In this document: positions 1,276 through 53,909 of the stretch, piece by piece | Layout of the letters: each line of letters opens with the position of its first letter | How positions within the stretch are numbered: the first letter of the stretch is position 1 | Notes under the pieces: model-generated | Databases searched by the model: none | What the model saw: the letters and a program-made list of their open reading frames with translations, nothing else | What the model was told of the DNA's origin: nothing | DNA from: a virus | Virus record (IMG/VR): IMGVR_UViG_3300045988_019667 | DNA length: 55,059 nucleotides | Direction: 5' to 3' (one strand) | Position numbers and translations under genes: made by a program

Positions 1276-4200
1276 ATGGCTGACAAAAGAATCGCTGATT
1301 TTGCGACGCTTGAGGAAGCACAGGACGACGATCTCCTGCTTGTCTCGTCCGAAGGCGAAACCTATAACATGAAATTTGGCACCTTCAAGGAGGCCGTGCG
1401 GGGCGACGCAGACCGTGCCGCTGCGGCAGCGGAGGCCGCCAAAGCCGCCGCCCAGCTCGCAACCGGCGTGTCTGACGAAGCCCTGAAAGCCGCCGAAGCT
1501 GCTGAAACCAAGGCGCAGGAAGCCAAAACGAAGGCGACGCAGGCAGCAGCCAACGCACAGGCGGCTGCGCAGTCCGCTAACTCCGCGCAGGAATCCGCCG
1601 CACGCTCTGAGCAGGCGCTTCTGGACGCAACGGAAGCCGTCGCATCTATCAATGAGTTTGCCGAGGATTTCAACAACCTGAAAACCACTGTAAAGGGCAA
1701 GGTTGACGACGCCTATGTTGAGGACGGCTACCTGTATATGACCGCCGACGACGAGGTCGTTGTCGGCCCGCTGGGGCCGTTCTCTGGCGGTGGTGGAGGC
1801 GGCGGCGGGGACGCTGGCTCCCTGATCCGAATTGTCAATAAGCTGACCTCGCGGGCGTTCTCCGTGATGAACGGCGCGACCGTCGAGATCAAATTCAACT
1901 GGACGTCCACCGATACTTCCGACGAACAGCCCACCGGCGATGGCTCGGCAACATGGCGCATCAACGGGACGAAGGTAGCTACACAGGCGGTGTCGCAGGG
2001 CGATTGCGCCTTCGACGTTACGAAGTACCTCACCCCCGCAAGCGCGAACACGATCAAGCTCACCATTGAGGACGCCTACGGCAATAGCAAGTCCTTCACA
2101 TGGACCGTCACCGTGTCCACCTATGATCTGGCGTGGAATCTTGGCACCCTTGCTTTCCACGGGTCCAGCGTACTTACTGTGCGCCTCACACCCACCGGAG
2201 AGGGCACGAAGACTATCCACATGACCGTGGACGGCACGGAGGCGTTTACGCGCGAAGTCACCACTACGGGGCGCTCCGTCACTGCGACGATTGACCCCAC
2301 GGCGCTTGAGTTGACGCACGGCGCACACACCGTCGAGGCGTGGCTTGAGGTCACAACGGGCGGCGAAGTCGTCACGACTACGCACCTGCGCCATGTCGGT
2401 ATCTGGACGAAATCGGACGACAATACGCCGGTTATCGCGGTGTATCAGAGCGCAATCGAAATCCAGCAGTTCGCCACTGGAAGCATCAATTACATGGTGT
2501 ATGACCCCACCAGCACCACGGCGACTGTCCGCCTACTGGAAGGCTACAATACCCTATCCACGCTGACCGTTGACCGCACCATCCAGACGTGGGCGTACCG
2601 TGCTACTACGGTCGGCACGATCAACCTCTCCATCCGCACCGGCGAGAGCGTCGTTGCGCCGATCACCGTCACCTGTACCTCTCTCGGCTATGACATCAAC
2701 CCTGTCACGACCGGCCTTGTCGTTGACCTCGATCCCACTGGACACAGCAACAGTGAGACGACCGCAAAGCAGTTCGGCTACAAGGACGGCGACGGCACGA
2801 ATCATCCGCTGACCTTCAGCTCCAATTTTGATTGGATCAACGGCGGATTTCAGATCGACACGGAAGGCGTTACCGGCTTTGTGGTTAAGCGCGGCACCTA
2901 CGTTCAGCTTGACCGCAGCCTGTTCAGCGACAACGCCGCGACCTCCGGCAAGGAAATCAAGGTCGTGTTCAAGGCTACCAACGTCCGCGACTATGACGCT
3001 GAGTTCCTGACCTGCGTATCTGGTGGCATTGGTCTGAAACTTCAGGCGCAGCAGGCGGTTTTCAGCTCTGAGTTGACCAACGTCGAAATCCCGTATTGCG
3101 AGGACCGCAAAATCGAGCTGGACGTCAGCATCGAAGCCAGCAACGAAAACAAGCTGGCCGTGGTCTGGCTTGAAGGCGTACCGTCCAGAGCGTTTGCGTA
3201 CACCGCAAATGATAACTGGATGCAGTCCGACCCGCAGAACGTGAAGATCGGCTCTGACGACTGCGACATCTGGATTTACCGTCTGAAGATGTACAGCCAT
3301 AGCCTCACGCGATACGAAATTCTCGACAACTTTGTTGCCGACTGCGGCAACACCACGGAAATGGTTGCCCGCTACCTCCGCAACCACATCTTCAACACGG
3401 ACGGCTCTATCAACGTCACTGAGCTGGCGGCGGCAAATCCGACGCTGCGTATTCTCAAGATCGGTGCCGACCGCATGACCGTTGGCAAGTCCGACGAAGT
3501 GGTCTGCACGGTCGATCTCGTCTATACGGACGGCGGCAGCACCTACAACTTCCACGCGACCGGCGTCATTATGAAGGGTCAGGGTACGTCCTCTGCTGCA
3601 TACGGCGAAGCCGCCCTCAACCTCGACCTTGATTTCAGCAAGGCTATTTGGGAGAACGGCGCGGGTGAGCGCATCGAGACGTTCGCCATGACCGAAAACG
3701 ACATTCCCGTGTCGTACTTCAATATCAAGCTGAATGTGGCGTCCAGCGAGAATGCGAACAACACTGTTCTGGCTGATGACTACAACAACTTCCAGCCCTT
3801 CCTGTCCGAAGGCCGCCGTGCTGACGCCCGCGTCCGTGATACCGTCAAGGGCTACCCCTGCGCCGTATTCTTCACCAACACCGGCACAAACGCCGTGAGC
3901 GTCGGCGCACGGTCTGTCGGCGCAGGCGCTACGATCCTGTATGGCAACGGCGACATGAACAACAGCAAAAAGAACTTTGCAGTGTTCGGTCAGACCGGCG
4001 AACGTCCGCTTCAGTGCTGCGTCGAGATTTCCAACAACATTGCCAGCCAGTGCCTGTTCAAGTCTGCTGACCTCACCGCCGAGACGTGGGACGGCAACGG
4101 TGCCTTTGAGTTCCGCTATCCCAAAAAACCCACCACAGAGATGAAGGCAGCATTCCAGACCATGCTGTCGTGGGTGGTTTCCACCGATACCACCGCTCCG

Positions 4201-6891
4201 ACCGGTAACGCGCTTAGCGCGCCCGTGACCTACGACGGGACGACCTACACGAACGACACGAAGGAGTACCGCGCGGCGAAGTTCAAGGCCGAGGTCGGCA
4301 ACTACTTCACCGTGGACAGCCTGCTTTACCACTACCTGTTCACCGAGCGCCACTGCATGATCGACAACCGTGCCAAGAACGTTTTCATCTCCTATGAGTA
4401 CGATCCTGACGTGCAGGACTACCGCTGGAACGTCTGCAAGGACTACGATAACGACACCGCAGACGGCAACGACAACGAAGGCGGTCTGACCTTCAGCTAC
4501 GGCCTTGAAGACACCGACAGCGTGGGCACCAAGCCTGTATTCAACGCCTCGTCCTCTGTGCTCTGGTGCAATGTCCGTGACTGCCTTGGCGCAGAGCTGG
4601 AAGCCATGTTCAAGGACCGAGAGGCGGCGGGTGCGTGGAGCGCCGAACGCATCCTTGCCAAATTTGCCGCGCATCAGGCGGCGCGCCCGGAAGCGTTGGT
4701 GGCCGAAGATATGTGGGGCAAATACTTCATGCCCTATATCAACAACGGCAACACCGCGTACATTGACATGATGCAGGGCAACAAGACCGACCAGCGTACC
4801 CAGTTCGAGACATACCAAGAGGGCTATATGTCCTCCAAGTATTACGGCTCTGTGGCCGTGAACGATAAAATTCAGTTCAGAGGCAACACCCCGAACGAGT
4901 GGGCGGGTGTCACGCCGACCGGCAACTTCTCCATCACCCCGTATGCCGACTGCTATATCATCGTCAAATACGGCTCCTACAGCGTCCGTAAGCGCGCGAA
5001 AAGAGGCACGGCATATGAGATCATCTGCCCCGTTCAGGAGGCGCTGAGCGACACGGAAATCTATGTCTACCTCGCTTCCAATGTGGTTGAGATCAGTTCC
5101 ATTGCCGGTCTGTACTGCCAGTTCATCGACCTTCAGGGCGCACGCCGTCTGCGCAGCTTCACCGCAGGCGCGGAGGCAGACGGTTACACGAACAAGAACC
5201 TGACGTCTATCAGCGTCGGCGCAAACACGCTGCTTGAGTACCTCGACCTGCGCGGTACGCCGGAGCTGAAGCAGGCACTTGACCTGTCCGCCCTCACCTC
5301 CCTGAAAACGCTTCTGCTGACCGGCAGCGGCATTACCGGCGTGACCTTCGCGCTGGGTGCTCCTGTCGAGACGGCCAAGCTCTGCCCGCTGAACAGCCTG
5401 ATTGCCCGGCAGCTCTCGCACCTGACCGCGTTTGCTATGGACGGCTCCAACCTCCGCACGATCTGGGTCGAGGACGCCGCAGCAATCGACACCTACGCGC
5501 TTGTGAGCGCTGCGGCAAGCCTCAGCCGTGGCCGCCTGCCGGACGTGGACTGGTCGATGAATGACGCCGACGTGCTGCTTCGCCTGAAAGACCTCGCCGG
5601 TCTGGACGAGACAGGCAACCCCGCTACGGATTTCGTCCTCAAGGGCGCAGCGCATATCGCCGTTGTGTCGCAGGCCGAGTTGACTACCATCATGGCGCGG
5701 TTCCTCGATCTGTCCGTGACCTACGATCAGATGGTCAGCTCCTGCACCGTCACATTCAAGAACTACGACGGCACAGTCCTGAATACGCAGACTGTCCGCA
5801 AGTACGGCGCGGCGAAAAACCCCATCACTGCCGGTCTGATCGACACGCCTGTCAAGCCCTCCACTGTCGATAAGGTGTTTACCTTCATTGGCTGGGATCA
5901 GCAGCTTACCTACATCCTCGAAGACCTCGTTGTGACGGCGCAGTATTCTGAGGCGACGCGGTATTACACCGTCCGTTGGTACAATGGCACTCAGCTTTTG
6001 CAGACTGACACTGTGGCGGCGCATGACGGCGTTTCCTTCCGTGGTGGTGAGCTGACGTCCTCCACCGGCTCTATCTGGATGGGCTGGGACGCGCTGACGA
6101 ACGATGTCACCAGCGACATTGACGTTCACGCAGTGTTCATTACGCCCACGCTGCCGGACACCGTAGCAACCAACTTCGACTACCTGTACAGCGACGACGC
6201 GAACGACAACAGCGGCTACACGCTGGCGGAGTTCTATGGCATCATGGAGACGGGCAAGGCGAAGGACTACTTCGCAGTCGGTGACAAGATCAAGATTGTT
6301 CCGACGACCACGGTATTTGCCGACACCTCTATCATCATGCAGGTCGCGGGCTTCAACCACTTCAAGAAGAAGGACAGCGACGATTTCGCCGGTGTCGTCT
6401 TTACCATGCTGGGCATTATGAACGCTACCCACCAGATGAACAGCCAGAACACCAACGTCGGCGGCTGGGCATCCTGCGGTATGCGGACGTGGCTCAATGA
6501 AACCATCTTTGCCGCGCTGCCGCGTCAGTGGCAGTCCATGATTAAGGTGGTTCAGGTGCGCTCCTCTGTCGGTGACACGAAGGCAGACATCAGCATCAGC
6601 AACGACCGCCTGTTCCTGCTGTCCCGCGCCGAAGTTGGCTTCAATGTCAGCGACGTACCCTACAAGGACGAGGTAGACCCCAACGCCGAAAACGTGACAT
6701 TCGCATTGTTCACCGACAACAATTCGCGTATCAAGAAAACGTACAACGGCACTGGTTCTGCTTCTCACTGGTGGCTGCGGTCGCCTGAGGCGTCCGGCTC
6801 GTCGTCTTTCGCCTATGTGCACTACCTCGGTTACAGCAGCACCAACACCGCGTCCAACTCCTACGGGGTGGCGTTCGGCTTCTGCATATAA
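1276..6891 (+). CDS. Giant tail fibre / receptor-binding protein, DGR target 1 (1871 aa)
   Basis: AAGGAGG RBS. Domains in order: Ala-rich coiled coil; Gly8 hinge; beta-rich middle with a tentative CotH-like stretch (FTERHCMIDNRAKNVFISYEYDP...DYDNDTADGNDNEGG); LRR-like segment (LEYLDLRGTPELKQALDLSALTSLKTLLLTGSGITGV); two Listeria/Bacteroides-type repeats (TVTFKNYDGTVL..FIGW; YTVRWYNGTQLL..WMGW); C-terminal WWLRSP...YGVAFGFCI lectin-like domain carrying VR1. Confidence 0.9.
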   Translation: MADKRIADFATLEEAQDDDLLLVSSEGETYNMKFGTFKEAVRGDADRAAAAAEAAKAAAQLATGVSDEALKAAEAAETKAQEAKTKATQAAANAQAAAQSANSAQESAARSEQALLDATEAVASINEFAEDFNNLKTTVKGKVDDAYVEDGYLYMTADDEVVVGPLGPFSGGGGGGGGDAGSLIRIVNKLTSRAFSVMNGATVEIKFNWTSTDTSDEQPTGDGSATWRINGTKVATQAVSQGDCAFDVTKYLTPASANTIKLTIEDAYGNSKSFTWTVTVSTYDLAWNLGTLAFHGSSVLTVRLTPTGEGTKTIHMTVDGTEAFTREVTTTGRSVTATIDPTALELTHGAHTVEAWLEVTTGGEVVTTTHLRHVGIWTKSDDNTPVIAVYQSAIEIQQFATGSINYMVYDPTSTTATVRLLEGYNTLSTLTVDRTIQTWAYRATTVGTINLSIRTGESVVAPITVTCTSLGYDINPVTTGLVVDLDPTGHSNSETTAKQFGYKDGDGTNHPLTFSSNFDWINGGFQIDTEGVTGFVVKRGTYVQLDRSLFSDNAATSGKEIKVVFKATNVRDYDAEFLTCVSGGIGLKLQAQQAVFSSELTNVEIPYCEDRKIELDVSIEASNENKLAVVWLEGVPSRAFAYTANDNWMQSDPQNVKIGSDDCDIWIYRLKMYSHSLTRYEILDNFVADCGNTTEMVARYLRNHIFNTDGSINVTELAAANPTLRILKIGADRMTVGKSDEVVCTVDLVYTDGGSTYNFHATGVIMKGQGTSSAAYGEAALNLDLDFSKAIWENGAGERIETFAMTENDIPVSYFNIKLNVASSENANNTVLADDYNNFQPFLSEGRRADARVRDTVKGYPCAVFFTNTGTNAVSVGARSVGAGATILYGNGDMNNSKKNFAVFGQTGERPLQCCVEISNNIASQCLFKSADLTAETWDGNGAFEFRYPKKPTTEMKAAFQTMLSWVVSTDTTAPTGNALSAPVTYDGTTYTNDTKEYRAAKFKAEVGNYFTVDSLLYHYLFTERHCMIDNRAKNVFISYEYDPDVQDYRWNVCKDYDNDTADGNDNEGGLTFSYGLEDTDSVGTKPVFNASSSVLWCNVRDCLGAELEAMFKDREAAGAWSAERILAKFAAHQAARPEALVAEDMWGKYFMPYINNGNTAYIDMMQGNKTDQRTQFETYQEGYMSSKYYGSVAVNDKIQFRGNTPNEWAGVTPTGNFSITPYADCYIIVKYGSYSVRKRAKRGTAYEIICPVQEALSDTEIYVYLASNVVEISSIAGLYCQFIDLQGARRLRSFTAGAEADGYTNKNLTSISVGANTLLEYLDLRGTPELKQALDLSALTSLKTLLLTGSGITGVTFALGAPVETAKLCPLNSLIARQLSHLTAFAMDGSNLRTIWVEDAAAIDTYALVSAAASLSRGRLPDVDWSMNDADVLLRLKDLAGLDETGNPATDFVLKGAAHIAVVSQAELTTIMARFLDLSVTYDQMVSSCTVTFKNYDGTVLNTQTVRKYGAAKNPITAGLIDTPVKPSTVDKVFTFIGWDQQLTYILEDLVVTAQYSEATRYYTVRWYNGTQLLQTDTVAAHDGVSFRGGELTSSTGSIWMGWDALTNDVTSDIDVHAVFITPTLPDTVATNFDYLYSDDANDNSGYTLAEFYGIMETGKAKDYFAVGDKIKIVPTTTVFADTSIIMQVAGFNHFKKKDSDDFAGVVFTMLGIMNATHQMNSQNTNVGGWASCGMRTWLNETIFAALPRQWQSMIKVVQVRSSVGDTKADISISNDRLFLLSRAEVGFNVSDVPYKDEVDPNAENVTFALFTDNNSRIKKTYNGTGSASHWWLRSPEASGSSSFAYVHYLGYSSTNTASNSYGVAFGFCI
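6761..6880 (+). other. DGR variable region VR1
   Basis: 120 nt collinear with TR 7540..7659. There are 11 mismatches, all at TR adenines (for example TR AAC AAC AAC versus VR1 CAC TAC CTC). It ends 9 nt before the stop codon of the fibre gene. Confidence 0.95.
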
Positions 6892-6905
6892 TCTGTGCAT
6901 CTTGG

Positions 6906-6935
6906 GTATCTGGCCCCCTTTGTGGGGCCAGATAC
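6906..6935 (+). promoter_or_regulatory. Perfect 12-bp GC-rich hairpin 25 nt downstream of VR1 (candidate DGR target-recognition hairpin and/or terminator)
   Basis: gtatctggcccc-ctttgt-ggggccagatac. It shares the GGCCCC/GGGGCC core with the hairpin after VR2. Confidence 0.6.
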
Positions 6936-7014
6936 TGGCGCACAGGCTTCCGACCTGCGCCCTATATCGCCGCGTAAGCGGCGCGCGAAAATTTTGATTT
7001 TCGGACTTTTCATA

Positions 7015-7043
7015 TGGAAAATGGGGGGGGCGTGTGATATAAT
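7015..7043 (+). promoter_or_regulatory. Putative DGR (avd-TR-RT) promoter with extended -10
   Basis: TGaTATAAT (TG 7035..7036, TATAAT 7038..7043) with a weak -35 TGGAAA 17 nt upstream. A G8 tract (7023..7030) lies in the spacer. It sits 31 nt upstream of the first avd start candidate. Confidence 0.5.
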
Positions 7044-7073
7044 ATATTTCACGAACTTTTCAGCAAAAATGAG

Positions 7074-7487
7074 GTGGTGCCCTTGTCTGTAATCAAAAGC
7101 AAGCGCTCTACGTCTGACATGGAGTTTCTGGCGACCGCAAGGAAGTTAGAAATTTACACGATTCAGAAATGCGTGAATTTCCCGAAGCGATACACCTTTT
7201 ATGTATCACAGCCCTTGGCCGCTGCGGCGACGCGCATTTATGAGGACGTGAAACGCGGTAACAGCATCTATCCGCTCAATCAGCATGAGGTCCAGATCAG
7301 GCGCGACTACTTCCTACACGCCAATGCTGAACTTCAGAGCATGATTTCCCAGCTTGAGGTGGCGCAGGAGCTGTTCGGTATCGAAATGGATACCCTGAAA
7401 TACTGGATGGACATTGTAGATACCGAAATCCGGCTCGTGAAAGCCGTACTGAAAAGCGACAGGGCGCGGTACAAAGACCTGCCCTGA
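7074..7487 (+). CDS. avd: Accessory variability determinant (Avd-like four-helix-bundle protein)
   Basis: 137 aa (122 aa if it starts at ATG 7119, MEFLATARKLE...). It lies between VR1 and TR. The helical sequence has the FPK..Y....Q...AA..I pattern typical of the Avd / 23S-rRNA-IVS protein family. Confidence 0.8.
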   Translation: MVPLSVIKSKRSTSDMEFLATARKLEIYTIQKCVNFPKRYTFYVSQPLAAAATRIYEDVKRGNSIYPLNQHEVQIRRDYFLHANAELQSMISQLEVAQELFGIEMDTLKYWMDIVDTEIRLVKAVLKSDRARYKDLP

Positions 7488-7539
7488 TAAGATCATAGGT
7501 TAAGCGCTGCACAAATTGCCAGTTCTTCGACGAGGTTGA

Positions 7540-7659
7540 CTTCTAACTGGTGGCTGCGGTCGCCTGAGGCGTCCGGCTCGTCGTCTTTCGCCAATGTGAA
7601 CAACAACGGTAACAGCAACAACAACAACGCGTCCAACTCCTACGGGGTGGCGTTCGGCT
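7540..7659 (+). ncRNA. DGR template region (TR)
   Basis: AAC/AAT-rich (AAT GTG AAC AAC AAC GGT AAC AGC AAC AAC AAC AAC GCG TCC AAC). Identical to VR1 and VR2 at every non-adenine position. Non-coding copy of the VR. Confidence 0.93.
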
Positions 7660-7877
7660 CCTCTCGTGCCAGACAGAGTAGCTTTCGGAGTGAAATCCGT
7701 GCAGAGTGGAGAGAAGGAGTGCTTGACCTTCCTGCAAAGGTAAATATATGCCCTGATGCGTCCGGGCGGACGCTGCTTGCATGGTACGGATTGCAGGTCA
7801 TTCCGTATTTCATGCCCGGTGACGCTATGTGCCTACTGCAACCTGCCAACAGGCATACGGGGCAAGCGAGGTTTCTT

Positions 7878-9035
7878 ATGACAAGCGAAGAACGTAGAGA
7901 AGCAAGGTATCAACGCCGCGCTGCCGCACGGCGGGCAAAGCGGGACGCCGCCTGCGCCGAGCACGATAACTACGACGAGGTGTTCAGCTATAAGCACCTC
8001 TATCAATCGTACAAGTGCTGCCGTCGCGGTGTGTCGTGGAAGGCCAGCGTCCAGAAATACACGGCCAACGCGCCGCTGAACATCCTGCACACATACAACC
8101 AGCTTGCAGCCGGAAAATTCAAAAGCCCCGGCTTTTACGAGTTTGATTTGTATGAGCGCGGGAAGCATCGTCATATCCGCAGCACGGTCATAAGCGAGCG
8201 TGTCGTTCAGCGCTGCCTGTGCGACAATGCCCTTGTGCCGGTCCTTGAGCGCACATTCGTCTACGACAACGGCGCGTCCATGAAGAACAAGGGCTACGAT
8301 TTTGCCACGCGCCGGATCACGCAGCATCTCCATGAGCACTACCGGAAATACGGCAATGAGGGCTATATCCTGCTGTTTGATTTCTCTAAATTCTTCGACA
8401 ACGTTTCCCATGAGGTCGTGAAAGCGATCCTGCATAAGGAATTCACCGACGAACGGCTTCTTGCGCTCACAGAGCATTTCATCGACGCTTTCGGCGATAA
8501 GGGTATGGGGCTGGGCAGTCAGATCAGTCAGGTGCTGGCCCTCGCCTCTGCAAACCGTCTTGACCACTATGTCAAGGAGGTTTTGCAGGTGCGCGGCTAT
8601 GGCCGGTACATGGACGACGGCTACCTGCTCCACACATCTAAAGCCTATCTTCAAAACTGCGTGGCACGTATCCGGGCGATATGCGCCGAGCTTGGCATTA
8701 CCCTGAATGAGAAGAAAACGCAGATCGTCAAGCTGAGCCACGGCTTTTCTTGGTTGAAGGTGCGTTTCTTCATCACAAAAACCGGCAAGGTCGTCCGGAA
8801 AATCTATAAGCGCAGCGTCACGAAGATGCGGCAGAAAATGAAAAAGCTACACAGGAAATACCTGCGCGGTAAAATGACCTTCGCGGACATCTATGCGACG
8901 TGGCAAAGCTGGCGCAGCTATGCCGCGCGATTCAACGCATGGCACACCGTTCAAAACATGGGCGCACTGTACACCAACCTTTTTATAAACAGCAAGGAGG
9001 ACTGCTATGGTCTACTTCAAAATCCTGTCTGCTGA
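7878..9035 (+). CDS. DGR reverse transcriptase
   Basis: 385 aa from ATG 7878 (MTSEERREARYQ...). Contains motif 4 GLGSQISQ (the [I/L]GxxxSQ hallmark of DGR RTs) and the catalytic box GRYMDDGYLL. The tracked ORF start at 7536 is only the open frame running through the TR. Confidence 0.92.
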   Translation: MTSEERREARYQRRAAARRAKRDAACAEHDNYDEVFSYKHLYQSYKCCRRGVSWKASVQKYTANAPLNILHTYNQLAAGKFKSPGFYEFDLYERGKHRHIRSTVISERVVQRCLCDNALVPVLERTFVYDNGASMKNKGYDFATRRITQHLHEHYRKYGNEGYILLFDFSKFFDNVSHEVVKAILHKEFTDERLLALTEHFIDAFGDKGMGLGSQISQVLALASANRLDHYVKEVLQVRGYGRYMDDGYLLHTSKAYLQNCVARIRAICAELGITLNEKKTQIVKLSHGFSWLKVRFFITKTGKVVRKIYKRSVTKMRQKMKKLHRKYLRGKMTFADIYATWQSWRSYAARFNAWHTVQNMGALYTNLFINSKEDCYGLLQNPVC

Positions 9036-9420
9036 CGGCACGGTCAAAAGCGTAGAAGCGCTTGCCGATCCCGTCTACGTCTGTTGGCAGACCCGCAACG
9101 GCATTCTTATCCGGTGCGACAAACGGGACGCGCAGGGCGTCATGTCCGGCGACGGGAACACAATCTATCAGCTTCAGGGGAAGCAGCTAAGCGGCGTTGA
9201 GAGTGACGAACTTCTCAGCGCCGTTTCTATTACCCTTGCAGAATATGAGGAGCTTGCGGCACAGGTCGGCACCACGGACCCCGACGACGATACGCCGGTC
9301 AATCCGCCCGACGACCCCGGAACGGAAATCCTCACCCGCGCGCAGCTCACCGAAAAGGTACTGGCCCTTGAAGACGAGCTGGCAGCGGCAAAAATCCTGC
9401 TGGGGGTGACGGACGAATGA
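9007..9420 (+). CDS. Hypothetical protein (tail-fibre accessory by position)
   Basis: AAGGAGGA RBS. Overlaps the RT 3' end by 29 nt. 137 aa with a C-terminal coiled coil. Confidence 0.6.
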   Translation: MVYFKILSADGTVKSVEALADPVYVCWQTRNGILIRCDKRDAQGVMSGDGNTIYQLQGKQLSGVESDELLSAVSITLAEYEELAAQVGTTDPDDDTPVNPPDDPGTEILTRAQLTEKVLALEDELAAAKILLGVTDE

Positions 9421-9824
9421 CGCTGAAAGCCCTCGCACAAAAACTGCGGCCCCTGATCGAAACCGCAGCACAAAGCCTTGATGACACGACCGCCCTTGAG
9501 GCGGTCGAACTTTTTCCGGCGTGGAAGACCGGCACCGTGTACACAACGGGGCGACGGGTCCGACATGGCGGGATTCTTTATACCGTTTTGCAGGATCACA
9601 CCGCGCAAGACAGCTGGACGCCCGATGCGGCACCGTCCCTTTTCGCAAAGGTGCTTATCCCTGATCCCGACGTTATCCCCGAATGGGAGCAGCCGGACAG
9701 CACCAACCCTTACAAGAAGGGGGATCGCGTCCGATTTAATGGAAAGGTTTACGAGAGCCTTATAGATAACAATGTGTGGTCGCCTTCTGCTTATCCTGCC
9801 GGTTGGAGGGAGGTGTCCGCATGA
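9417..9824 (+). CDS. Carbohydrate-binding (CBM5/12-like) protein
   Basis: ATGA start/stop overlap. Two chitin-binding-type repeats (WKTGTVYTTGRRVRHGGILYTVLQDHTAQDSWTP; YKKGDRVRFNGKVYESLIDNNVWSPSAYPAGW). Confidence 0.6.
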   Translation: MTLKALAQKLRPLIETAAQSLDDTTALEAVELFPAWKTGTVYTTGRRVRHGGILYTVLQDHTAQDSWTPDAAPSLFAKVLIPDPDVIPEWEQPDSTNPYKKGDRVRFNGKVYESLIDNNVWSPSAYPAGWREVSA

Positions 9825-10376: not shown

Positions 10377-11378
10377 ATGAGTTACACAAATTCACCGATG
10401 GTGAGCTACACGAAGCTCAGCCCGAACCACAGCGGGCAGCGTACCCACAGCATCGACCGCATCACGCCGCACTGCGTGGTCGGCCAGTGCAGCGTGGAGA
10501 CGCTGGGCCGCATCTTCACGCCGACCTCCAAGCAGGCCAGCAGCAACTACGGCATCGGCCTTGACGGTCGTGTCGGTATGTACGTTGAGGAGAAAAACCG
10601 CAGCTGGTGTTCCTCCTCCAATGCCAACGACCAGCGGGCCGTCACTATCGAGTGCGCCAGCGACAGCACAGAACCGTATGCGTTCAAGGATGTGGTCTAT
10701 CAGACCCTCATCAAGCTCTGCGTGGACATCTGCCAGCGCAACGGCAAAACCAAGCTGCTTTGGCTGGGCGACAAGGACAAGACCCTGAATTACACCCCCA
10801 AGGCCGACGAAATGATCCTGACCGTCCACCGCTGGTTTGCCAACAAGAGCTGCCCCGGCAACTGGATGTACGCCCGCATGGGCGATCTCGCCGTGAAGGT
10901 CACTGCGGCGCTGGGCGCTGCGGCGAAGCCCACTACCCCTACCACTCCCAGCACCATCAAGAAGGGCGATGTCGTGCGCATCCTGTCCGGCGCGACCTAC
11001 TACAACGGCAAGGCTGTCCCGAACTGGGTAGCCGCCAAGCAGTGGATCGTCCGCGAGGTCAGCGGCGACCGCGCTGTCATCGACAAGAGCGTGGACGGCA
11101 AGAATGCCATTTGCAGCCCGATCAATGTCAGGTTCCTGTCCGTCGTGGGCGGGACGGCTACACCGACGCCCAGCTTCAGCGCATATCGCGTGAAGATCAC
11201 CGCCAATGCTCTGAACATCCGCAAAGGCCCCGGCACTGGCTATGACACGAACGGCTGCATCCGTGACCACGGCGTTTATACTATCGTCGCGGAGAGCACG
11301 GGCACCGGCGCGACCAAGTGGGGCAAGCTCAAATCCGGCGCAGGCTGGATCAGTCTGGATTACACCAAAAAGGTGTAA
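10377..11378 (+). CDS. Endolysin: N-acetylmuramoyl-L-alanine amidase (Amidase_2/PGRP type) with C-terminal SH3-like repeats
   Basis: The N-terminal domain has the ITPHCVVGQ / RSWCSS..NDQRAVTIE / CPGNW pattern. The C-terminus has two SH3-like repeats (KKGDVVRILSGATYYNG..; YRVKITANALNIRKGPGTGY..). Confidence 0.85.
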   Translation: MSYTNSPMVSYTKLSPNHSGQRTHSIDRITPHCVVGQCSVETLGRIFTPTSKQASSNYGIGLDGRVGMYVEEKNRSWCSSSNANDQRAVTIECASDSTEPYAFKDVVYQTLIKLCVDICQRNGKTKLLWLGDKDKTLNYTPKADEMILTVHRWFANKSCPGNWMYARMGDLAVKVTAALGAAAKPTTPTTPSTIKKGDVVRILSGATYYNGKAVPNWVAAKQWIVREVSGDRAVIDKSVDGKNAICSPINVRFLSVVGGTATPTPSFSAYRVKITANALNIRKGPGTGYDTNGCIRDHGVYTIVAESTGTGATKWGKLKSGAGWISLDYTKKV

Positions 11379-11836: not shown

Positions 11837-11899
11837 AATTTATGTAACGCCTGTGCCGTTACAAAGCGGAAAAACGTAACCCCTGATTGTAACGCCTGT

Positions 11900-12038
11900 T
11901 GTAACCCCGAAAAGCCTTGAAACAAGGCGCTTTTCGGCTTGATGTTACAATGTTACATACTTTTTCTATTGAATACCTGAAATAAAGAGAAAACGACATA
12001 CGCGCATCATAGCGCCTATATGCACGCGTATTATAGGA
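11900..12038. repeat. Dispersed repeat copy A (about 140-bp core shared with 35347..35486), inside a GTAAC/GTTAC motif array
   Basis: Long identical blocks: tgtaaccccgaaaagcc, ttttcggcttg, tgttacaatgttacatactttt, ctattgaatac, catagcgcctata, attatagga. I count 10 GTAAC/GTTAC pentamers between 11803 and 12058. Confidence 0.85.
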
Positions 12039-12086: not shown

Positions 12087-12147
12087 GCCTTCTACGATGC
12101 CAGCACGAAAAAATTCACTGGTAGCTCAAAATATTTGACTTAACCTC

Positions 12148-12205
12148 TTGACAAGTACAAATTATTGCACTATAATATGGTTGTCAGTTGAAATAATCGT
12201 ACTGA
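12148..12205 (+). promoter_or_regulatory. Consensus sigma-70 promoter plus operator-like inverted repeat (module 1)
   Basis: TTGACA (12148..12153), 17-nt spacer, TATAAT (12171..12176). Then TCAGT-N12-ACTGA at 12184..12205. About 70% identical over roughly 60 bp to the module at 20396..20453. Confidence 0.75.
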
Positions 12206-12396: not shown

Positions 12397-12479
12397 AACT
12401 ACGCAGAGTGACGGGGTGAAAACCCCGGTAATGCGGCAGGCCGGTCACAAGCCCGGCCACGCTATAGGAGGACAAGAAA

Positions 12480-13161: not shown

Positions 13162-13359
13162 GTGAGGTATCTGGTTCAGGCCATTCTGATTGATGGCGAT
13201 ATCGAAACTGTGGTTGGCAGCATAAAGAGCGATGACTACAAGGCCGCCGCCACATTCCTGATGATGATGCACCGCCACGGCTACAAATATCTTTACCGTG
13301 CGATGGACATTGAAACCGGGGAAATCGTGATGTCAACAACAAAGAACGAATTCCAATGA
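13162..13359 (+). CDS. Hypothetical protein (65 aa)
   Basis: AGGAGG RBS 9 nt before GTG 13162. Only the last third of tracked ORF 12829..13359 does not overlap the upstream gene. Confidence 0.5.
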   Translation: MRYLVQAILIDGDIETVVGSIKSDDYKAAATFLMMMHRHGYKYLYRAMDIETGEIVMSTTKNEFQ

Positions 13360-13434
13360 GCCGAAACGCCCGTTTGGGCGTCTGCCGGAACCGCCCCACC
13401 GGCACTGAAGATGGCAGGGCAACGGAGGTAAAGC

Positions 13435-17452: not shown

Positions 17453-17492
17453 AAAACTGCCGCAGAGGACAATTACCTCTGCGGTAGTTTTC
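17452..17492. terminator. 41-bp near-perfect palindrome: bidirectional terminator at the convergent junction (attP not excluded)
   Basis: GAAAACTGCCGCAGAGG-ACAATTA-CCTCTGCGGTAGTTTTC. It overlaps the stop codons of both convergent genes. Confidence 0.65.
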
Positions 17493-19080
17493 TTGTCAGG
17501 CCGAACACATTCCTAAACCAAAAGAGTTCGTACCTGTGTGTTTTGGTGGAGCGAGACGCACGGCATCCGAACTCCTCCCCGTCTTCAAAACGCTGCATAT
17601 CATGCAGTGTGATGGTGCTTTTATCTCCGCTGAAGTTGTACGTCAACGTTATGTGGTCGTCGTAAACGAATACCGCGTTCACGAAGGTCTGGATCAGGCG
17701 CTTTTGTGCCTCTTTGTCCGACCAGTCAGCATCACGCAGGCTGCGGAGATAAAATGCGATATGGGATTTTTGCAGGTGGAAACCGCGGGCGATTTCCCTG
17801 TCGGCAATGGACGCCTTCAGGTCGGCTTTCTGCTGCGTCAGCTCGTCCATGCGCTTCTTGGTTTCCTCAGTCAGTATTCCGGCCTCAATGGCCCGAATGA
17901 GGTTTGATATGGCGGTGTCAGTCTGTGCAAGCTGCCGCTGAAGGTTACGCAGCTCCTCTTGACTGTTGTCCTGTGCAAGGTAATACTCCCATGTGCGGTC
18001 AACGATGTAGTCCAGTAGCTCGTCGTCTTGCAGCAGCTCATGGGTGGCGTTGAGCACGGTGTCCTCAATGTCCGCCTGTCGCACGGCCTTTTTGTCGCAG
18101 GAGCGGAAGCGCTTCTTGTTGGAGCAGATGTAATAATTATGCTTGACACCGGTTTTACTGGTGCCGCTCTCTCCGAACATCAGAGCACCGCACTTGCCGC
18201 AGAACAGCTTGTCCGTGAGAATGTAGTCGGCACGCGACCATGTTTTCGCCGGTGCTCGCTTGTTGATCTTCAGCATTTCCTGCACTTTGTTAAACACGTC
18301 GTCCTCGATAATCCGGGGCACGCCGTCCTTGATCTCGCGGCCTTGGTATTCGTAAATGCCAATGTACTTCTTGTTCTTCAGAATCGAATGCAAGCTGTTC
18401 TTGGTGAAGGGTCCGCCGCGCAACGTCCGCAGGCCCATTTCATTCAGCTTGTCAACGATTTCCGTAACTGTCTTGCCGTCCGCGTACATGGTGAAGATCA
18501 TCTTCACTGTGGGCGCGGTATTTTCGTCTATGACGAACTTTTTGTCCGGCCCGGTCTTGTACCCCAGCGGGCGGTTTCCGCCCAACGACTGGCACTTCTC
18601 GGCGCTCTCAGCACGGCCACGGCGGATGTTCTGTGACAGCTGTAGGCTGTAATATTCCGCGAAGCCTTCCAGCACGCTTTCAAGGATTACGCCCTCCGGA
18701 CTGTCCGGGATGGTTTCCGCCACATACTCGACGCGCACGCCGTTCTTACGGCACTTCATCTTGTTTATGGCGATCTCCTCACGGTTACGCCCAAAGCGGT
18801 CAACCTTCCAGAGGATGATAACCGAAAACTGCCGCTTGGCCGTGTCCTTCAGCATCTGCTGGAACTCGGCACGGTTATCCGTCCGACCGCTCTTTGCCCT
18901 GTCAACGTATTCATGCACGATGGTGTAGCCGTGTGCGGCGGCGTAGTCTCTTGCGTTGGAGAGCTGCCCTTCGATGGACTGTTCACCTTGACTGTGGCTT
19001 GAATACCGGGCGTATACGACGGCCAGTTCGCTGACCTCCGGCTTTGCCATTGGCACCCGCCATTTAATATCTATCGACAT
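17473..19080 (-). CDS. int: Large serine recombinase (integrase)
   Basis: N-terminal resolvase domain with VVYARYSSHSQ (catalytic Ser context). Contains a recombinase domain, a Cys-containing zinc-ribbon region (CGKCGALM...YYICS) and a coiled-coil C-terminus. Alternative start at 19050 (MAKPEV...). Confidence 0.9.
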   Translation of the reverse strand: MSIDIKWRVPMAKPEVSELAVVYARYSSHSQGEQSIEGQLSNARDYAAAHGYTIVHEYVDRAKSGRTDNRAEFQQMLKDTAKRQFSVIILWKVDRFGRNREEIAINKMKCRKNGVRVEYVAETIPDSPEGVILESVLEGFAEYYSLQLSQNIRRGRAESAEKCQSLGGNRPLGYKTGPDKKFVIDENTAPTVKMIFTMYADGKTVTEIVDKLNEMGLRTLRGGPFTKNSLHSILKNKKYIGIYEYQGREIKDGVPRIIEDDVFNKVQEMLKINKRAPAKTWSRADYILTDKLFCGKCGALMFGESGTSKTGVKHNYYICSNKKRFRSCDKKAVRQADIEDTVLNATHELLQDDELLDYIVDRTWEYYLAQDNSQEELRNLQRQLAQTDTAISNLIRAIEAGILTEETKKRMDELTQQKADLKASIADREIARGFHLQKSHIAFYLRSLRDADWSDKEAQKRLIQTFVNAVFVYDDHITLTYNFSGDKSTITLHDMQRFEDGEEFGCRASRSTKTHRYELFWFRNVFGLTRKLPQR

Positions 19081-20339: not shown

Positions 20340-20395
20340 TAGATCACCTTAGTCCGAAAAATTTAACCGCAGACCAAAATTTTCACCTAATCCTA

Positions 20396-20453
20396 TTGAC
20401 AAGCTCAATTTTTCGTACTATAATGTAGCTGTCAGTTGAAAATATTAGACTGA
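20396..20453 (+). promoter_or_regulatory. Consensus sigma-70 early promoter plus operator-like inverted repeat (module 2)
   Basis: TTGACA (20396..20401), 17-nt spacer, TATAAT (20419..20424). Then TCAGT-N12-ACTGA at 20432..20453, the same 8-nt offset from the -10 as module 1. Confidence 0.75.
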
Positions 20454-26944: not shown

Positions 26945-27568
26945 ATGTTTATTAAGACTTCTACTACCAACGAAACCACATGGGCCGCGCTGAAGGCGGC
27001 GGTCGATAACGGCACCATCGCGCAGGGCGATTTGGTCATCTTCAATCTGAAGAACGGCGAGGAAGTGGCCGTGAGAGCTACACAGGACAAGAAGGGCAAG
27101 TGGTTCTTCGTCCTCGAAGACTGCCTCGCTGACGAGCACTGCATGAACAAGCGCCCCACCAACAAGGGCGCGTGGGCCGCCTGCGATATGCGGCAGTATC
27201 TCAACAATACCGTGTTCGCCCTTCTGCCGGACGAGCTTCAGGCGCTTATTGCGCCGACGACAATCGTCCAGATCGTGGACGGTGAGCGCGTGGAAACTGA
27301 AGACAAGCTGTTCTTGCTCTCCAAGACGCAGGTGTTCGGCAAGGGCCGCTGGTCGGATCGTGAGCCGGAGGACACGCAACTCCTGTGCTTCCTCCGCGAG
27401 AAGGACCGCGTGAAGGAGTGCAGCGACAATGGAACATGGTGGTGGTGGCTGCGGTCGCCTGAGGCGTCCGGCTCGTCGTCTTTCGCCAGTGTGTCCGGCA
27501 TCGGTGGCAGCAGCAACTGCTCCGCGTCCTCCTCCTACGGGGTGGCGTTCGGCTTCTGTTTAATCTGA
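26945..27568 (+). CDS. Stand-alone lectin-like (WWLRSP-type) protein, DGR target 2 (207 aa)
   Basis: TAAGGAGG RBS 14 nt after the polymerase stop. Paralogous to the C-terminal domain of the tail fibre (GAWAACDMRQYLNNTVFALLP / DKLFLLSKTQV versus GGWASCGMRTWLNETIFAALP / DRLFLLSRAEV). Carries VR2. No obvious signal peptide or TM helix. Confidence 0.9.
   Translation: MFIKTSTTNETTWAALKAAVDNGTIAQGDLVIFNLKNGEEVAVRATQDKKGKWFFVLEDCLADEHCMNKRPTNKGAWAACDMRQYLNNTVFALLPDELQALIAPTTIVQIVDGERVETEDKLFLLSKTQVFGKGRWSDREPEDTQLLCFLREKDRVKECSDNGTWWWWLRSPEASGSSSFASVSGIGGSSNCSASSSYGVAFGFCLI
27443..27554 (+). other. DGR variable region VR2 (remote target)
   Basis: 112 nt collinear with TR 7548..7659. There are 15 mismatches, all at TR adenines (VR2 AGT GTG TCC GGC ATC GGT GGC AGC AGC AAC TGC TCC GCG TCC TCC). 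Confidence 0.93.
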
Positions 27569-27584: not shown

Positions 27585-27603
27585 GGCCCCCGGTCGTGGG
27601 GCC
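27585..27603 (+). promoter_or_regulatory. GC-rich hairpin 30 nt downstream of VR2
   Basis: ggcccc-cggtcgt-ggggcc, the same stem core as the VR1 hairpin. Confidence 0.5.
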
Positions 27604-35239: not shown

Positions 35240-35346
35240 CGAAATAGGCGTTACAAACGGGGGTGTTACAAGCGGAAACGGCGTCGAAGCTGTAACACCT
35301 ATGCCGTTACAGAAATTTTTTGTGTAACCCCTGTTGTAACACCATC

Positions 35347-50018: not shown

Positions 50019-53000
50019 ATGGCAGATCAGGCTGACGGCTCTATCATCATTGATACCGAGATAAATTCGGACGGATTTAAGGCCGGAAGCGCTGAATTGC
50101 TTGCGGCTATCAAGGCACTGTCCACAGAGGTCAAGAATCTGGGACAAACGCTGAAAGAACTTTTCAGCAAGCCGCTGACACCTGAAATCAATACAGGTGG
50201 CGCAGAGGATAAGGTTGCAGCGCTTGAGGCAAAAGTACAGGAGCTGCAAACCTCCCTCGAAGAATTACAGAATACCAACGGCAGCGGCACGCCTGCGCCG
50301 GAAACAGCTACACCGCAGGTGAACATCGGTGGTGTGACGGAAAAGGCATCCGGTTTGCAGCGTGAGATCGACGCCGTGAACAGCAGCGTGCAGAAGCTGG
50401 AACCGACCTTCCAGAAAGCCATGTCCGGCAGCGAGAGCGCTATGACCTCCTTTGAGGGCAAGGCAAGCACGCTGGAAAGCAAGATTGCGGAGCTTCAGGA
50501 ACGGCTGGATGCAGTCGGTCAGACACAATTCCCGACGCAGGAGTATCAGTCTCTTGTTGATGCGCTGGAAAAAGCGAGCTACAAGGCAGATGCGCTGCGT
50601 GAAAGAATGAAAACGCTTGACGCACGCGGCGTTTCTCACAATTCGCAGCAGTGGAAAAACCTTCAAATTGACATTGACCGCGCCGCTCAAAAATGTGATA
50701 CATACGCAGAGGCCGTCCGGAGGATGGAGGCTGACGGTTCGGCATTCCGGATGGGAGCGGATACGGCGCAGTATGACCAGATGCAGGCGGTCCTTGCCAG
50801 TGCGTCCGAAAGTCTGTCCGAAATGCAATCCAAAACGCAAAAGTCCGAAAGCCTTATGCGTCGTTTCGCAAGCGCAGCAAAAAGTGCAGCAAAAACCATT
50901 GCTGGCTCTCTTGTTTCCGGAATAAGGGCCGCAGCGTCCGGTATGGCAAAAATGCTGTTCCACAGCAAGAAGATGAACAGCCAGTTTGGCGGGCTGATTT
51001 CCGGCGCGAAGAAATTTGCACTCAGCTTGCTTGGCGCGCGCGGCGTCTGGGCGCTGCTGCGGAAAGCGGTCAGCGCCTATATGGCCGAAAATCAGCAGCT
51101 TTCCAATACGCTGTCCGCCTGTTGGTCGGGCATAGGAAACTTGCTGGGGCCGATAATTACACGCATTATCAACCTTGTCGCACAAGCTGTCGCCTATGTA
51201 ACCGCGTTTCTCAAACTCTTTGGCATCTATGGAAAAACTGCATCCAAAGAAATCAGCAGCGCAGGCGGGGCGGCATCCAAAGCTACCGATAAGCTCAAAC
51301 GGCAGCTGGCCGCGTTCGATGAACTGAACATTCTCAGCGACAACAGCTCTGACGGCGGCGGGGGTGGAGGAGGTGCCGGTGATCTCGGAAGTCTGCCCGA
51401 TGTAACGCTGCCCGACTGGGCAAAACTTATGGTCGAGCAGATCAAGGCCGGTGACTGGGCCGCAGCCGCAAACACTCTGGCGGCAAAGCTCAACGAAATG
51501 GTTGATACCGTAGACTGGGCGGGCGTCGGCGATAAGATCGGGTATTATTTGAACGGCGCGTTGACTTTCCTTGCGACGTTCATCCAGAACTTCGACTGGA
51601 AAAACCTTGCGTCGCGCTTTGCAGAACTCCTAAACCACATTATTACCGGTGTGGACTGGGGAAATCTCGGTGTGATCCTGACCGGGAAATGGGCAATCAT
51701 CCTGAAATCGCTTGACGGCTTTTTCGGCACGCTTGACGGCGCAGCAGTGAGCAAGGCCATCACGGATTTCATGTACGGGACCGTGAACGCCGCCGACTGG
51801 ATCGGTATTGCGGGAAGTCTCGCAAAAAACATCAGCAATTTCATTTCGGACATTGATTTTTCGGCACTTGCCGAAGCGCTCAGTACGCAAATCAGAACGG
51901 CGCTTCAAAGTATGGTCGCTGCTGTCGAGAACTTCGACTGGGCAATGCTCGGAAGAAAAATCGCTGATTTTCTCAACGGAATTGATTGGAGCGGGATTTT
52001 CTCTGACCTGACAAGATTGCTTGGTGGCCTGCTTATCGGAGCGCTCAATCTGCTTGTCGGCTTTGTGGATCAGGTCGATTGGACCGGCCTTGCAGACGAA
52101 ATCTGGGCTTGTCTCGAAAGTCTTACCACCGACATTGACTGGGACGGCTTCGGTGAATTGCTTGGCAAGTTTGTCAGTGGAGCCATAACCGGCGTTCTCG
52201 ATCTCATTACGTCTCTGTTTTCAGATCATGACTGGGGCGAAATGGTGCAAAACCTGATTGGCAGTCTGGGGGAGGCACTGGGCGCGGTAATCGAAAACAT
52301 TGACTGGCTCGGCCTGCTGGAATCCCTTGCGACCGCTCTTGTCAGCATTATTGTTCAGATTCCCAGCATTATTGTGGGTGCCATTGGCGGAATATCCGAC
52401 CTGCTTGCAAGTTTGTTTGAGGCAATCGGCCTCGATTCTATCGCCGGTTTCTTTCGTGGAATCGGAGACGCAATGCGCGACGCGGGTTCGTGGCTGAAAG
52501 AAAACCTCGTAGACCCTGTTGTGAACTGGGTAAAGAACCTGTTCGGCATCCACTCTCCGTCTACTGTATTCGCAGAAATCGGTACATTCCTTATCGACGG
52601 ACTAAAGCAGGGCATTTCTAATGCTTGGCACAAGATCACGGACTTCTTCTCCGGCGTAATCGAAAAGTTGAAGACCTTCTTCAGTAACGCATGGAGCAGT
52701 ATCAAGTCCACCGCTACCACGGCATGGGTCGGAATCAAGGGCGTTATCAGCAGTGCATGGAACGGCATCAAATCCGGTGTGTCGTCTGCCTGCAATACCG
52801 TCAAAACCGGTATCTCGAATGCTTGGAGCGCCATCAAATCTGGCACCACAAGCGCGTGGAACGGTATCAAGAGCGGGCTGTCTTCGGCTTGGACGAGCAT
52901 CAAGACCACAGCATCGTCCACTTGGACAAATCTGAAAACTACTGTCAGCAACGGCTGGAACAACATCAAGGCGAACACCTCCACCGTTTGGAACGGTGTA

Positions 53001-53909
53001 AAAGCTACACTGTCCAGCACTTGGAGCAATATTAAGTCTACCGCGTCGTCCACTTGGAACAGCATGAAGACTACGGCTTCCAGCGCGTGGAACAGTATGA
53101 AATCTACTGCATCGTCCACATGGAGCAATATCAAATCCTCCCTGTCCAGCACTTGGAGCAGCATCAAATCTACCGCATCCAGCACATGGAGCGGCATCAA
53201 AAATGCGATTCAGAATCAGGGCTGGTCCGGCGTCGGCAGCAATATCTGTAACGGTATTGCCAACGGTATCAGCTCCGGTTGGAGCTGGCTGAAGAACAAG
53301 GTTTCCAGCCTCGCAAGCAGCCTTCTCAGCGCTGCAAAATCCGCGCTGGGTATTCACTCCCCATCGCGGCTGTTCCGTGACGAAATCGGCCTGAATATCG
53401 GCTACGGCGTCGGTGAAGGTGTGGAGGCTTCGCAGCCGTCCATCCTGAAATCCGTGTCCGGCGTCGCTGACGCAATCGCGGATGAATTCAACGCCGGTGA
53501 TTATAAGGTCGGAAACATCGTCCCCACGTCTGAGGTGGACGGTGCGCTGTCCTCGTTCTCGGACAAGATCAGCGGCAGCTTCACAAGCCTGCTTGACCGG
53601 CTTCAGGCCATTGCGGATAACATCACGTTCGCCGTTCCCGCTGTGGCTGGCGGTGTCGTGCCCTACAAGGCCGCAGCAGCCGCAGCAAGCGGCGGCGGTG
53701 CTGACATCGGCACGACCATTGAAACGTCAAATGACGCGCTCGCAAGCGTTGTTACGCAGGTCGTGACCAATGCGACCGCAGCCATTGTGACGGCCATCCA
53801 GAACTACAGCGGTACGACGGTCAACTTCGACAAGACCGCAATCGCGGAAAGCACGATCCGAGAGATCAACCGCAGAACGCGGGCAACCGGAAAATCCCCG
53901 CTCGAATAA
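50019..53909 (+). CDS. Tape measure protein
   Basis: 1296 aa. Coiled-coil N-terminus, central hydrophobic helices, Gly8 stretch, and 16 x 11-aa Trp repeats. Confidence 0.9.
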   Translation: MADQADGSIIIDTEINSDGFKAGSAELLAAIKALSTEVKNLGQTLKELFSKPLTPEINTGGAEDKVAALEAKVQELQTSLEELQNTNGSGTPAPETATPQVNIGGVTEKASGLQREIDAVNSSVQKLEPTFQKAMSGSESAMTSFEGKASTLESKIAELQERLDAVGQTQFPTQEYQSLVDALEKASYKADALRERMKTLDARGVSHNSQQWKNLQIDIDRAAQKCDTYAEAVRRMEADGSAFRMGADTAQYDQMQAVLASASESLSEMQSKTQKSESLMRRFASAAKSAAKTIAGSLVSGIRAAASGMAKMLFHSKKMNSQFGGLISGAKKFALSLLGARGVWALLRKAVSAYMAENQQLSNTLSACWSGIGNLLGPIITRIINLVAQAVAYVTAFLKLFGIYGKTASKEISSAGGAASKATDKLKRQLAAFDELNILSDNSSDGGGGGGGAGDLGSLPDVTLPDWAKLMVEQIKAGDWAAAANTLAAKLNEMVDTVDWAGVGDKIGYYLNGALTFLATFIQNFDWKNLASRFAELLNHIITGVDWGNLGVILTGKWAIILKSLDGFFGTLDGAAVSKAITDFMYGTVNAADWIGIAGSLAKNISNFISDIDFSALAEALSTQIRTALQSMVAAVENFDWAMLGRKIADFLNGIDWSGIFSDLTRLLGGLLIGALNLLVGFVDQVDWTGLADEIWACLESLTTDIDWDGFGELLGKFVSGAITGVLDLITSLFSDHDWGEMVQNLIGSLGEALGAVIENIDWLGLLESLATALVSIIVQIPSIIVGAIGGISDLLASLFEAIGLDSIAGFFRGIGDAMRDAGSWLKENLVDPVVNWVKNLFGIHSPSTVFAEIGTFLIDGLKQGISNAWHKITDFFSGVIEKLKTFFSNAWSSIKSTATTAWVGIKGVISSAWNGIKSGVSSACNTVKTGISNAWSAIKSGTTSAWNGIKSGLSSAWTSIKTTASSTWTNLKTTVSNGWNNIKANTSTVWNGVKATLSSTWSNIKSTASSTWNSMKTTASSAWNSMKSTASSTWSNIKSSLSSTWSSIKSTASSTWSGIKNAIQNQGWSGVGSNICNGIANGISSGWSWLKNKVSSLASSLLSAAKSALGIHSPSRLFRDEIGLNIGYGVGEGVEASQPSILKSVSGVADAIADEFNAGDYKVGNIVPTSEVDGALSSFSDKISGSFTSLLDRLQAIADNITFAVPAVAGGVVPYKAAAAAASGGGADIGTTIETSNDALASVVTQVVTNATAAIVTAIQNYSGTTVNFDKTAIAESTIREINRRTRATGKSPLE
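52686..53213 (+). repeat. 16 tandem 33-nt (11-aa) repeats inside the tape measure gene
   Basis: Units NAWSSIKSTAT, TAWVGIKGVIS, SAWNGIKSGVS ... STWSGIKNAIQ, with Trp and Lys at a fixed 11-residue period. Confidence 0.9.

Follow-up and report, generated by a model that had tools for sequence, protein, structure and literature searches.

Anatomy and natural variation of a diversity-generating retroelement with one template repeat and two DUF6273 target genes in a human-gut viral genome

The retroelement cassette and its two variable repeats

The 55,059-nucleotide DNA of IMG/VR virus record IMGVR_UViG_3300045988_019667 (the whole stretch analysed, hereafter the window) carries a diversity-generating retroelement (DGR) adjoining its tail genes. 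Along the plus strand, the cassette comprises a gene for an 1871-aa tail-fibre-like protein (target gene 1; 1276..6891) with a variable repeat (VR1; 6761..6880) at its 3' end, the avd gene for the accessory variability determinant (7083..7487), a template repeat (TR; 7540..7659), a spacer RNA (7664..7885) and a gene for a 385-aa DGR reverse transcriptase (RT; 7878..9035). A second variable repeat (VR2; 27443..27554) is located on the same strand, 20 kb from the TR, in a gene for a 207-aa protein (target gene 2; 26945..27568). A preliminary description of this DNA had proposed a complete DGR in the tail-fibre module, and each of the components it named is present and independently supported. 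The second, remote target was not mentioned there.

VR1 and the TR are each 120 nt long and, as previously described, collinear without gaps in an alignment at a fixed offset of 779. Their mismatches had been counted as 11, all on TR adenines. The restriction to adenines holds, with zero mismatches at non-adenine TR positions in the exact alignment, but the number is 10, which is also the sum of the codon list given with the earlier count. The sites, in TR coordinates, are 7545, 7593, 7599, 7602, 7605, 7606, 7611, 7618, 7621 and 7627, and each is an A in the TR. Given 25 adenines among the 120 TR bases, the placement of 10/10 mismatches on A has a hypergeometric p of 2.8e-8. A further A/G difference occurs at 7539/6760, one base beyond the repeat. 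It was left uncounted, as the G is invariant in VR1 of all ten related contigs and the position is therefore probably outside the mutagenised tract. The homology ends at 6880/7659, after which VR1 continues with TCTG and the TR with CCTC, and the stop codon of target gene 1 follows VR1 at a distance of 3 codons.

The TR is non-coding at its own location. When it is read in codons, 12 of its 25 adenines occupy position 1, 13 occupy position 2 and none occupies position 3; the codons include 11 AAC and one AAT, and the diversified sites of VR1 correspond to TR adenines at 7544-7636. From each AAC or AAT codon 15 amino acids are reachable and no stop. Stop codons cannot arise because the adenines are confined to positions 1 and 2 of such codons, and the computed theoretical repertoire is ~2e15 protein variants per target.

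A separate repeat search recovered the TR/VR1 pair together with a third copy at 27435-27557. Within this copy, the 112-nt VR2 corresponds to TR 7548-7659 and ends 4 codons before the stop codon of target gene 2. Fifteen mismatches separate VR2 from the TR, of which 15/15 are on TR adenines and none is at any of the 89 non-adenine positions (p = 3.1e-13). For VR1 and VR2 combined, 25/25 mismatches are on TR adenines (p ~1e-20). Scanning both strands of the window with an adenine-masked TR, including 40-nt sub-windows, revealed no TR-like copies other than VR1, the TR and VR2.

Both target proteins belong to the Pfam family DUF6273. In the 1871-aa protein the domain occupies the last 150 aa (about 6433-6885; E = 3.3e-21), and the protein also matches the tail fibre PHROG 4242 and the large-protein PHROGs 14959 and 24896. 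Together with the neighbouring tail genes, these matches support the earlier assignment of VR1 to the C-terminus of a tail fibre. The 207-aa protein consists of DUF6273 only (E = 1.7e-24). In both proteins the VR forms the C-terminal end of the domain, which is conserved family-wide as WWLRSP...GVAFGF. This conservation, and the membership of both proteins in one family, would also be expected if the 207-aa protein were a paralogue whose C-terminus resembles the TR by shared ancestry. However, the two domains have only ~29% of residues in common outside the VR, whereas 89/89 non-adenine positions of VR2 are identical to the TR; such perfect DNA identity in an otherwise divergent domain indicates copying and not common descent. 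In addition, VR2 is hypervariable only at TR-adenine columns among ~25 relatives, agrees in haplotype with the TR on the same contig, and is followed by the same 3' boundary motif and a hairpin as VR1 (see below). Hence, it is very improbable that VR2 is such a paralogous sequence, and VR2 is a second target of the DGR.

The RT gene begins with the ATG at 7878, 218 nt after the TR, as had been noted. Its product is a Pfam RVT_1 protein assigned to PHROG 1423 (E = 7e-85), and the DGR-type motifs attributed to it earlier were found as LGSQISQ and YMDD, which conform to [I/L/V]GxxxSQ and YxDD. The nearest solved relative in the PDB is bRT, the Bordetella DGR enzyme (8ub7_A; E = 1.8e-16, 63.6 bits), in which IGSLTSQ is aligned with LGSQISQ and YMDD with YMDD; group II intron RTs in the PDB gave E = 5e-8 or weaker and at most 35.7 bits. 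Thus, both the motifs and the closeness to bRT are those of a DGR RT.

An alternative would be that the three repeat copies are ordinary duplications, altered by point mutation or gene conversion, which happen to adjoin an unrelated retron, group II intron or defence RT. The top NCBIfam model for the protein is indeed the group II intron RT/maturase TIGR04416, and defence-associated RT (DRT) and retron-type models are listed by PADLOC. The NCBIfam scores are, however, far under the curated cut-offs (94.6 bits versus 300 for TIGR04416, 43.5 versus 235 for retron St85 and 44.3 versus 200 for Drt3a), and no group II, retron or DRT model of that collection reaches its cut-off with the RT. In PADLOC, the models of which have no curated cut-offs, the DRT and retron-type models rank behind a generic 'RT' model (95 bits). 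An Rfam scan of the window detected neither a group II intron RNA nor a retron RNA, while an RNA of the RT-2 family is present in the interval from the TR to the RT gene, and an Avd protein is encoded. With bRT as the best solved relative and 25/25 mismatches on TR adenines, ordinary repeats next to an unrelated RT have hardly any chance of being the correct explanation.

The avd open reading frame between VR1 and the TR had been described as encoding a 137-aa Avd-like helical protein. The reading frame (7074-7487) and the Avd identity were upheld, but the length was not: a 137-aa product starts at GTG 7074, whereas most of the 567 homologues have 134 aa and a GAGGTGG ribosome-binding site precedes TTG 7083, for which reason a 134-aa product starting at this TTG is the probable one. 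The protein was assigned to PHROG 3206 ('Avd protein of DGR'; E = 2e-10), and a few homologues carry PF05635. An AlphaFold model (predicted local distance difference test score 87) is a four-helix bundle, and the top Foldseek matches are 2gsc and 2rld, which are PF05635-type proteins, and 8ub7_B/C, the Avd of Bordetella phage BPP-1, with TM scores of 0.70-0.86. As the four-helix bundle is a simple fold, these matches are supportive but not proof.

The 218-nt interval that separates the TR from the RT gene, left as a plain gap in the preliminary description, is a conserved structured RNA. The Rfam model RT-2 (RF03077) matches 7664..7885 over all of its positions (1-222 of 222) with 157.8 bits (gathering score 40), and the match overlaps the RT start codon. 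An RT-2 RNA is also located directly 5' of the RT gene in 8/9 sampled relatives with RT identities of 43-78%, and its first hairpin shows compensatory changes among close relatives. In the study that defined these motifs, only RT-10 was assigned to a DGR, as the spacer RNA of BPP-1, and a link of further RT motifs to further DGRs was offered as speculation (Weinberg et al. 2017; PMC5737381). A literature search gave no paper linking RT-2 with a DGR. The window shows RT-2 to be the spacer that links TR and RT in an active DGR.

The sequences following the repeats distinguish the VRs from the TR. The element TCTG...TAATCTG at 6881..6897 is common to VR1 and VR2 and is replaced in the TR by CCTC.... 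In related contigs every VR1 and VR2 copy has GGCT|TCT followed by TAATCT, which contains or adjoins the stop codon after both VRs, and every TR has GGCT|CCTC. The difference is thus at the position expected for the initiation of mutagenic homing (IMH) sequence as opposed to IMH*. Beyond this boundary, a GC-rich 12-bp hairpin or cruciform is present at 6906..6935, 25 nt past VR1 (DNA folding energy -20.8 kcal/mol, z = -5.1), and was found in all VR1 relatives. VR2 is followed after 31 nt by the hairpin GGCCCC-N7-GGGGCC (27585..27603), and the two hairpins have the stem core GGCCCC/GGGGCC in common. In BPP-1, efficient homing requires a hairpin/cruciform just 3' of the VR, for which the structure of the stem matters and its sequence does not (PMC3240598). 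In the distant relatives L107 and L115 the hairpin past VR2 is kept at the same place with another stem sequence, which matches this requirement, and both hairpins are candidate target-recognition elements. Neither includes a T-run or is called by a terminator scan, and their interpretation as plain terminators was rejected. Ahead of avd, at 7015..7043, there is a promoter-like site of the extended -10 type (TG-n-TATAAT), proposed from its consensus match only (10/12 positions).

Natural variation in related genomes

Related sequences were retrieved from IMG/VR with two protein queries. The RT gave 80 loci, of which 18 are full-length and 98-99% identical (L001-L018) and one further locus (L019) is 88% identical; the 207-aa protein gave ~27 loci at 90-96% identity. 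Every related TR retains the full set of 23 core adenines. In contrast to this constancy and to the near identity of the RTs, the VR1 sequences of the window and ten related contigs are all distinct (11/11), and 115/117 of the differences between the members of this set and their cognate TRs are on TR adenines. Likewise, 26/27 copies of VR2 are distinct, with variation in TR-adenine columns only, and in the six contigs that include both a TR and VR2, 50/51 differences are on adenines. Both VRs are therefore hypervariable in natural populations. The check proposed in the preliminary description, that polymorphism be confined to columns that are A in the TR, was carried out on related contigs instead of reads and gave the expected result. 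For the small target protein, one cluster at 90% identity contains 2527 distinct sequences. The two-VR layout was also found in a relative with only 78% RT identity (L021, L107, L134).

Changes at non-adenine positions of the TR reveal the direction of transfer. The variants GTCG..T at 7574-7580 and TCT to TCC at 7543, present in the TRs of some relatives, recur in VR1 and VR2 of the same relative. Thus, information flows from the TR to both VRs.

Non-adenine differences between VR and TR number three in 168 (L010/L094, L017 and L018). One VR2 has C for T at TR position 7589, and two different VR1 copies have G for T at 7578 and T for G at 7615, respectively. Ordinary mutation could explain them, as could RT errors at non-adenine bases or changes in the TR that followed the last homing event.

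In L001 (IMGVR_UViG_3300045988_014240; 99% identical), the tail-fibre gene runs into an unmutated TR at ~9550-9790 and avd is absent, owing either to collapse of the VR1/TR repeat during assembly or to a real 779-bp deletion by recombination between VR and TR. The 88.6-kb contig L115 (IMGVR_UViG_3300045988_108629) includes at ~4502-4613 a VR equal to the TR of the window except for 4 non-adenine positions, in a gene whose product has only 39% identity with the small target. A quite different phage thus seems to use almost the same TR/VR cassette.

The same comparisons bear on whether the DGR is a fossil, i.e. an element that was once functional and is now inactive, with the VR differences as relics. 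The absence of avd from L001 would fit such a history, as would a Faecalibacterium study in which read-level variation was not observed in culture at the VRs of Lelie, Lagaffe_CP and CP11 (PMC11792537). Against it, relatives with RTs 98-99% identical have VR1 copies that are all distinct and VR2 copies that are nearly all distinct, varying only at TR-adenine columns, and both VRs have taken over non-adenine TR polymorphisms of recent origin. Moreover, the RT, Avd, the TR adenines and the RT-2 RNA are intact and conserved. A fossil is therefore very improbable, and the differences at TR adenines between the VRs of near-identical relatives, together with the copying of non-adenine TR variants into both VRs, point to an element active in nature.

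Several observations weigh against regarding the DGR as complete and functional. The Avd protein gave no sequence match in Pfam, NCBIfam or the PDB, either as a single sequence or as a 20-sequence profile, and its assignment depends on the PHROG match, on precomputed PF05635 annotations of 81%-identical homologues and on a simple fold. Non-adenine differences between VR and TR do occur (2/117 in the VR1 set and 1/51 for VR2). The hairpins are situated 25-31 nt beyond the VRs, farther than in BPP-1, and their role is that of candidates. A C-type-lectin (or Ig) fold is expected of the variable domain in a DGR target, but the predicted structure of the 207-aa target gave no match in the PDB, to C-type lectins or otherwise, and the model has low confidence in the VR loop. 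Finally, the activity proposed is read from differences between contigs and not from variation observed within one population. On balance, we are highly confident that the window contains a complete, functional DGR of a temperate human-gut Clostridia phage, in which one template serves two targets.

Genome context and the small target protein

The ends of the window, 1-141 and 54919-55059, are identical, leaving 54,918 bp of unique sequence, which indicates a circular or terminally redundant contig. As 141 is a common maximum k-mer of assemblers, the repeat suggests the overlap of a circular assembly rather than a biological direct terminal repeat. Across the junction, a gene for a tape-measure protein (50019..53909) is followed by a 128-aa open reading frame, a gene for a 623-aa tail protein (54305 to 1258) and the 1871-aa fibre gene. 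The 623-aa protein gene spans the circular junction and is truncated in any linear list of open reading frames. Past the fibre gene, the order is the DGR cassette, a small open reading frame, a CBM5/12 protein, endolysin (10377..11378), serine integrase (17473..19080, minus strand), exonuclease, DNA polymerase, the VR2 protein, ThyX, primase/helicase and terminase.

The GC content is ~56%, and the bacterial assemblies that encode RTs at 97-98% identity are metagenome-assembled genomes of uncultured human-gut Clostridia. The tape-measure and tail proteins, the serine integrase and the GC content agree with the high-GC, temperate siphovirus with a serine integrase envisaged in the preliminary description. 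Given the long tape measure and the failure to detect baseplate genes in the window, assignment to the siphoviruses is plausible.

Target gene 2 is flanked by the genes for DNA polymerase and ThyX. Neither a signal peptide nor a membrane segment is evident in its 207-aa product, the predicted structure of which matched only other DUF6273 proteins in BFVD. The protein may be an intracellular or early-expressed diversified binder rather than a receptor-binding protein of the tail or virion, and could in that case, for example, track a variable host factor or defence protein; we put this forward tentatively and consider it rather unlikely. The location of a small target in the replication module is kept from this phage to Roseburia phage Shimadzu, the RT of which is 49% identical. 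In view of this conservation, an intracellular binder would represent a second, functionally distinct use of a DGR inside one phage. The function of this small target protein of a non-structural module would be a tractable question.

Other elements were found in the region downstream of the DGR. The CBM_5_12 protein (9417..9824, plus strand; 135 aa, two modules, E = 6e-21) is encoded between the RT and endolysin genes and may be a cell-wall-binding protein or lysis accessory. An operon of small open reading frames, with a strong TTGACA/TATAAT promoter upstream (~12150-12178), includes two ribozymes on the plus strand: a Twister-P5 ribozyme in an intergenic gap at 12402-12456 (69 bits) and a type II hammerhead ribozyme in another gap at 13359-13423, whose 39.1 bits are just over the gathering score of 37. 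The same Twister-P5/hammerhead pair is present in L021 (14849-14902 and 15384-15448; RT 78% identical) at a similar distance from the DGR.

Two pairs of long non-coding direct repeats were also observed. The copies at 11887-11987 and 35334-35434 are 93% identical and contain TGTTACAATGTTACA and a short hairpin, and those at 12109-12205 and 20357-20453 are 71% identical, each with a TTGACA...TATAAT promoter. Both pairs may represent regulatory or operator sequences that divergent early operons have in common.

Proposed mechanism and comparison with known systems

The mechanism proposed for the DGR follows, by analogy, that of Bordetella phage BPP-1 (PMC6182149, PMC5703328, PMC3240598). Transcription would cover the avd gene, the TR, the spacer and the RT gene and probably start from the promoter-like site (7015-7043). 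A complex of RT and Avd would then bind the structured RT-2 spacer beside the TR and reverse-transcribe the TR, placing random bases opposite template adenines, with cDNA synthesis presumably primed from the spacer RNA as the parallel with BPP-1 suggests. The resulting cDNA would replace the homologous VR. Its 3' boundary would be fixed by the VR-specific GGCT|TCTG... sequence and the downstream GC hairpin, and its 5' boundary by homology. The roles given here to Avd and the hairpins are likewise modelled on the Bordetella system. Diversification of the tail fibre is likely to serve the switching of host receptors.

Neither the mechanism nor the architecture of this DGR is new. It does, however, allow two VRs, their boundary motifs and hairpins, Avd, the TR, the RT-2 spacer RNA and the RT to be located on one genome, and can be used as a curated reference for the class of DGRs with a large and a small DUF6273 target. 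In addition, it ties RT-2, an orphan Rfam motif, to a role as DGR spacer.

The combination of a large and a small DUF6273 target has been published for the Toutatis-like Faecalibacterium phage Lelie, the candidate prophage CP11 and Roseburia phage Shimadzu; hence, it is not a new architecture. Lelie and CP11 have one DGR with two VRs, located at the C-terminus of the domain in both targets, and show adenine-specific variation across their IMG/VR cognates (PMC11792537). Compared by description, the window resembles them in its large and small DUF6273 targets, its single TR and its setting in a phage with a serine integrase. The Lelie genome is ~53 kb in length with a phiC31-type serine integrase, whereas that of CP11 is only ~36 kb (PMC11792537). 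That the window is a cognate of Lelie or CP11 was considered and is improbable, given the size of CP11 and the fact that no phage record reaches 50% RT identity. None of the phage RTs in GenBank is more than 49% identical to that of the window, and the longest stretch shared by the cassette (6500-9100) with GenBank phage DNA is 124 nt, found in Shimadzu inside the RT-2 RNA. Thus, that collection includes no close cultured relative.

The nearest annotated RT is that of Roseburia phage Shimadzu (LR596903), with 49% identity. The order of tail fibre, Avd, TR/RT-2 region, RT, endolysin, minus-strand integrase and ThyX is the same in the two genomes, and Shimadzu orf43, located ~12 kb downstream in the replication region, encodes a homologue of the small target protein with 30% identity. 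Shimadzu differs in having a P2-like baseplate and tail of the myovirus type and a 431-aa fibre, whereas the window encodes a long tape measure and an 1871-aa fibre.

The anatomy of the cassette is largely that of the mtd-avd-TR-brt element of BPP-1. In both, a target with a C-terminal VR is followed by avd, the TR, a structured spacer and the RT gene. Adenine-only differences between TR and VR, variable AAC codons, an RT with [I/L]GxxxSQ and YMDD and a four-helix Avd are also common to both, as are 3' boundary sequences that differ between VR and TR and a hairpin past the VR (PMC3240598, PMC6182149). The two elements differ in the spacer RNA, which is RT-2 in the window and RT-10 in BPP-1, and in the target domain, which is DUF6273 and not Mtd. 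The DGR of the window further has two targets, one of them 20 kb off, hairpins with a 6-7-nt loop at 25-31 nt from the VR, an RT of 385 aa compared with 328 aa in BPP-1, and as its host a Gram-positive gut anaerobe.

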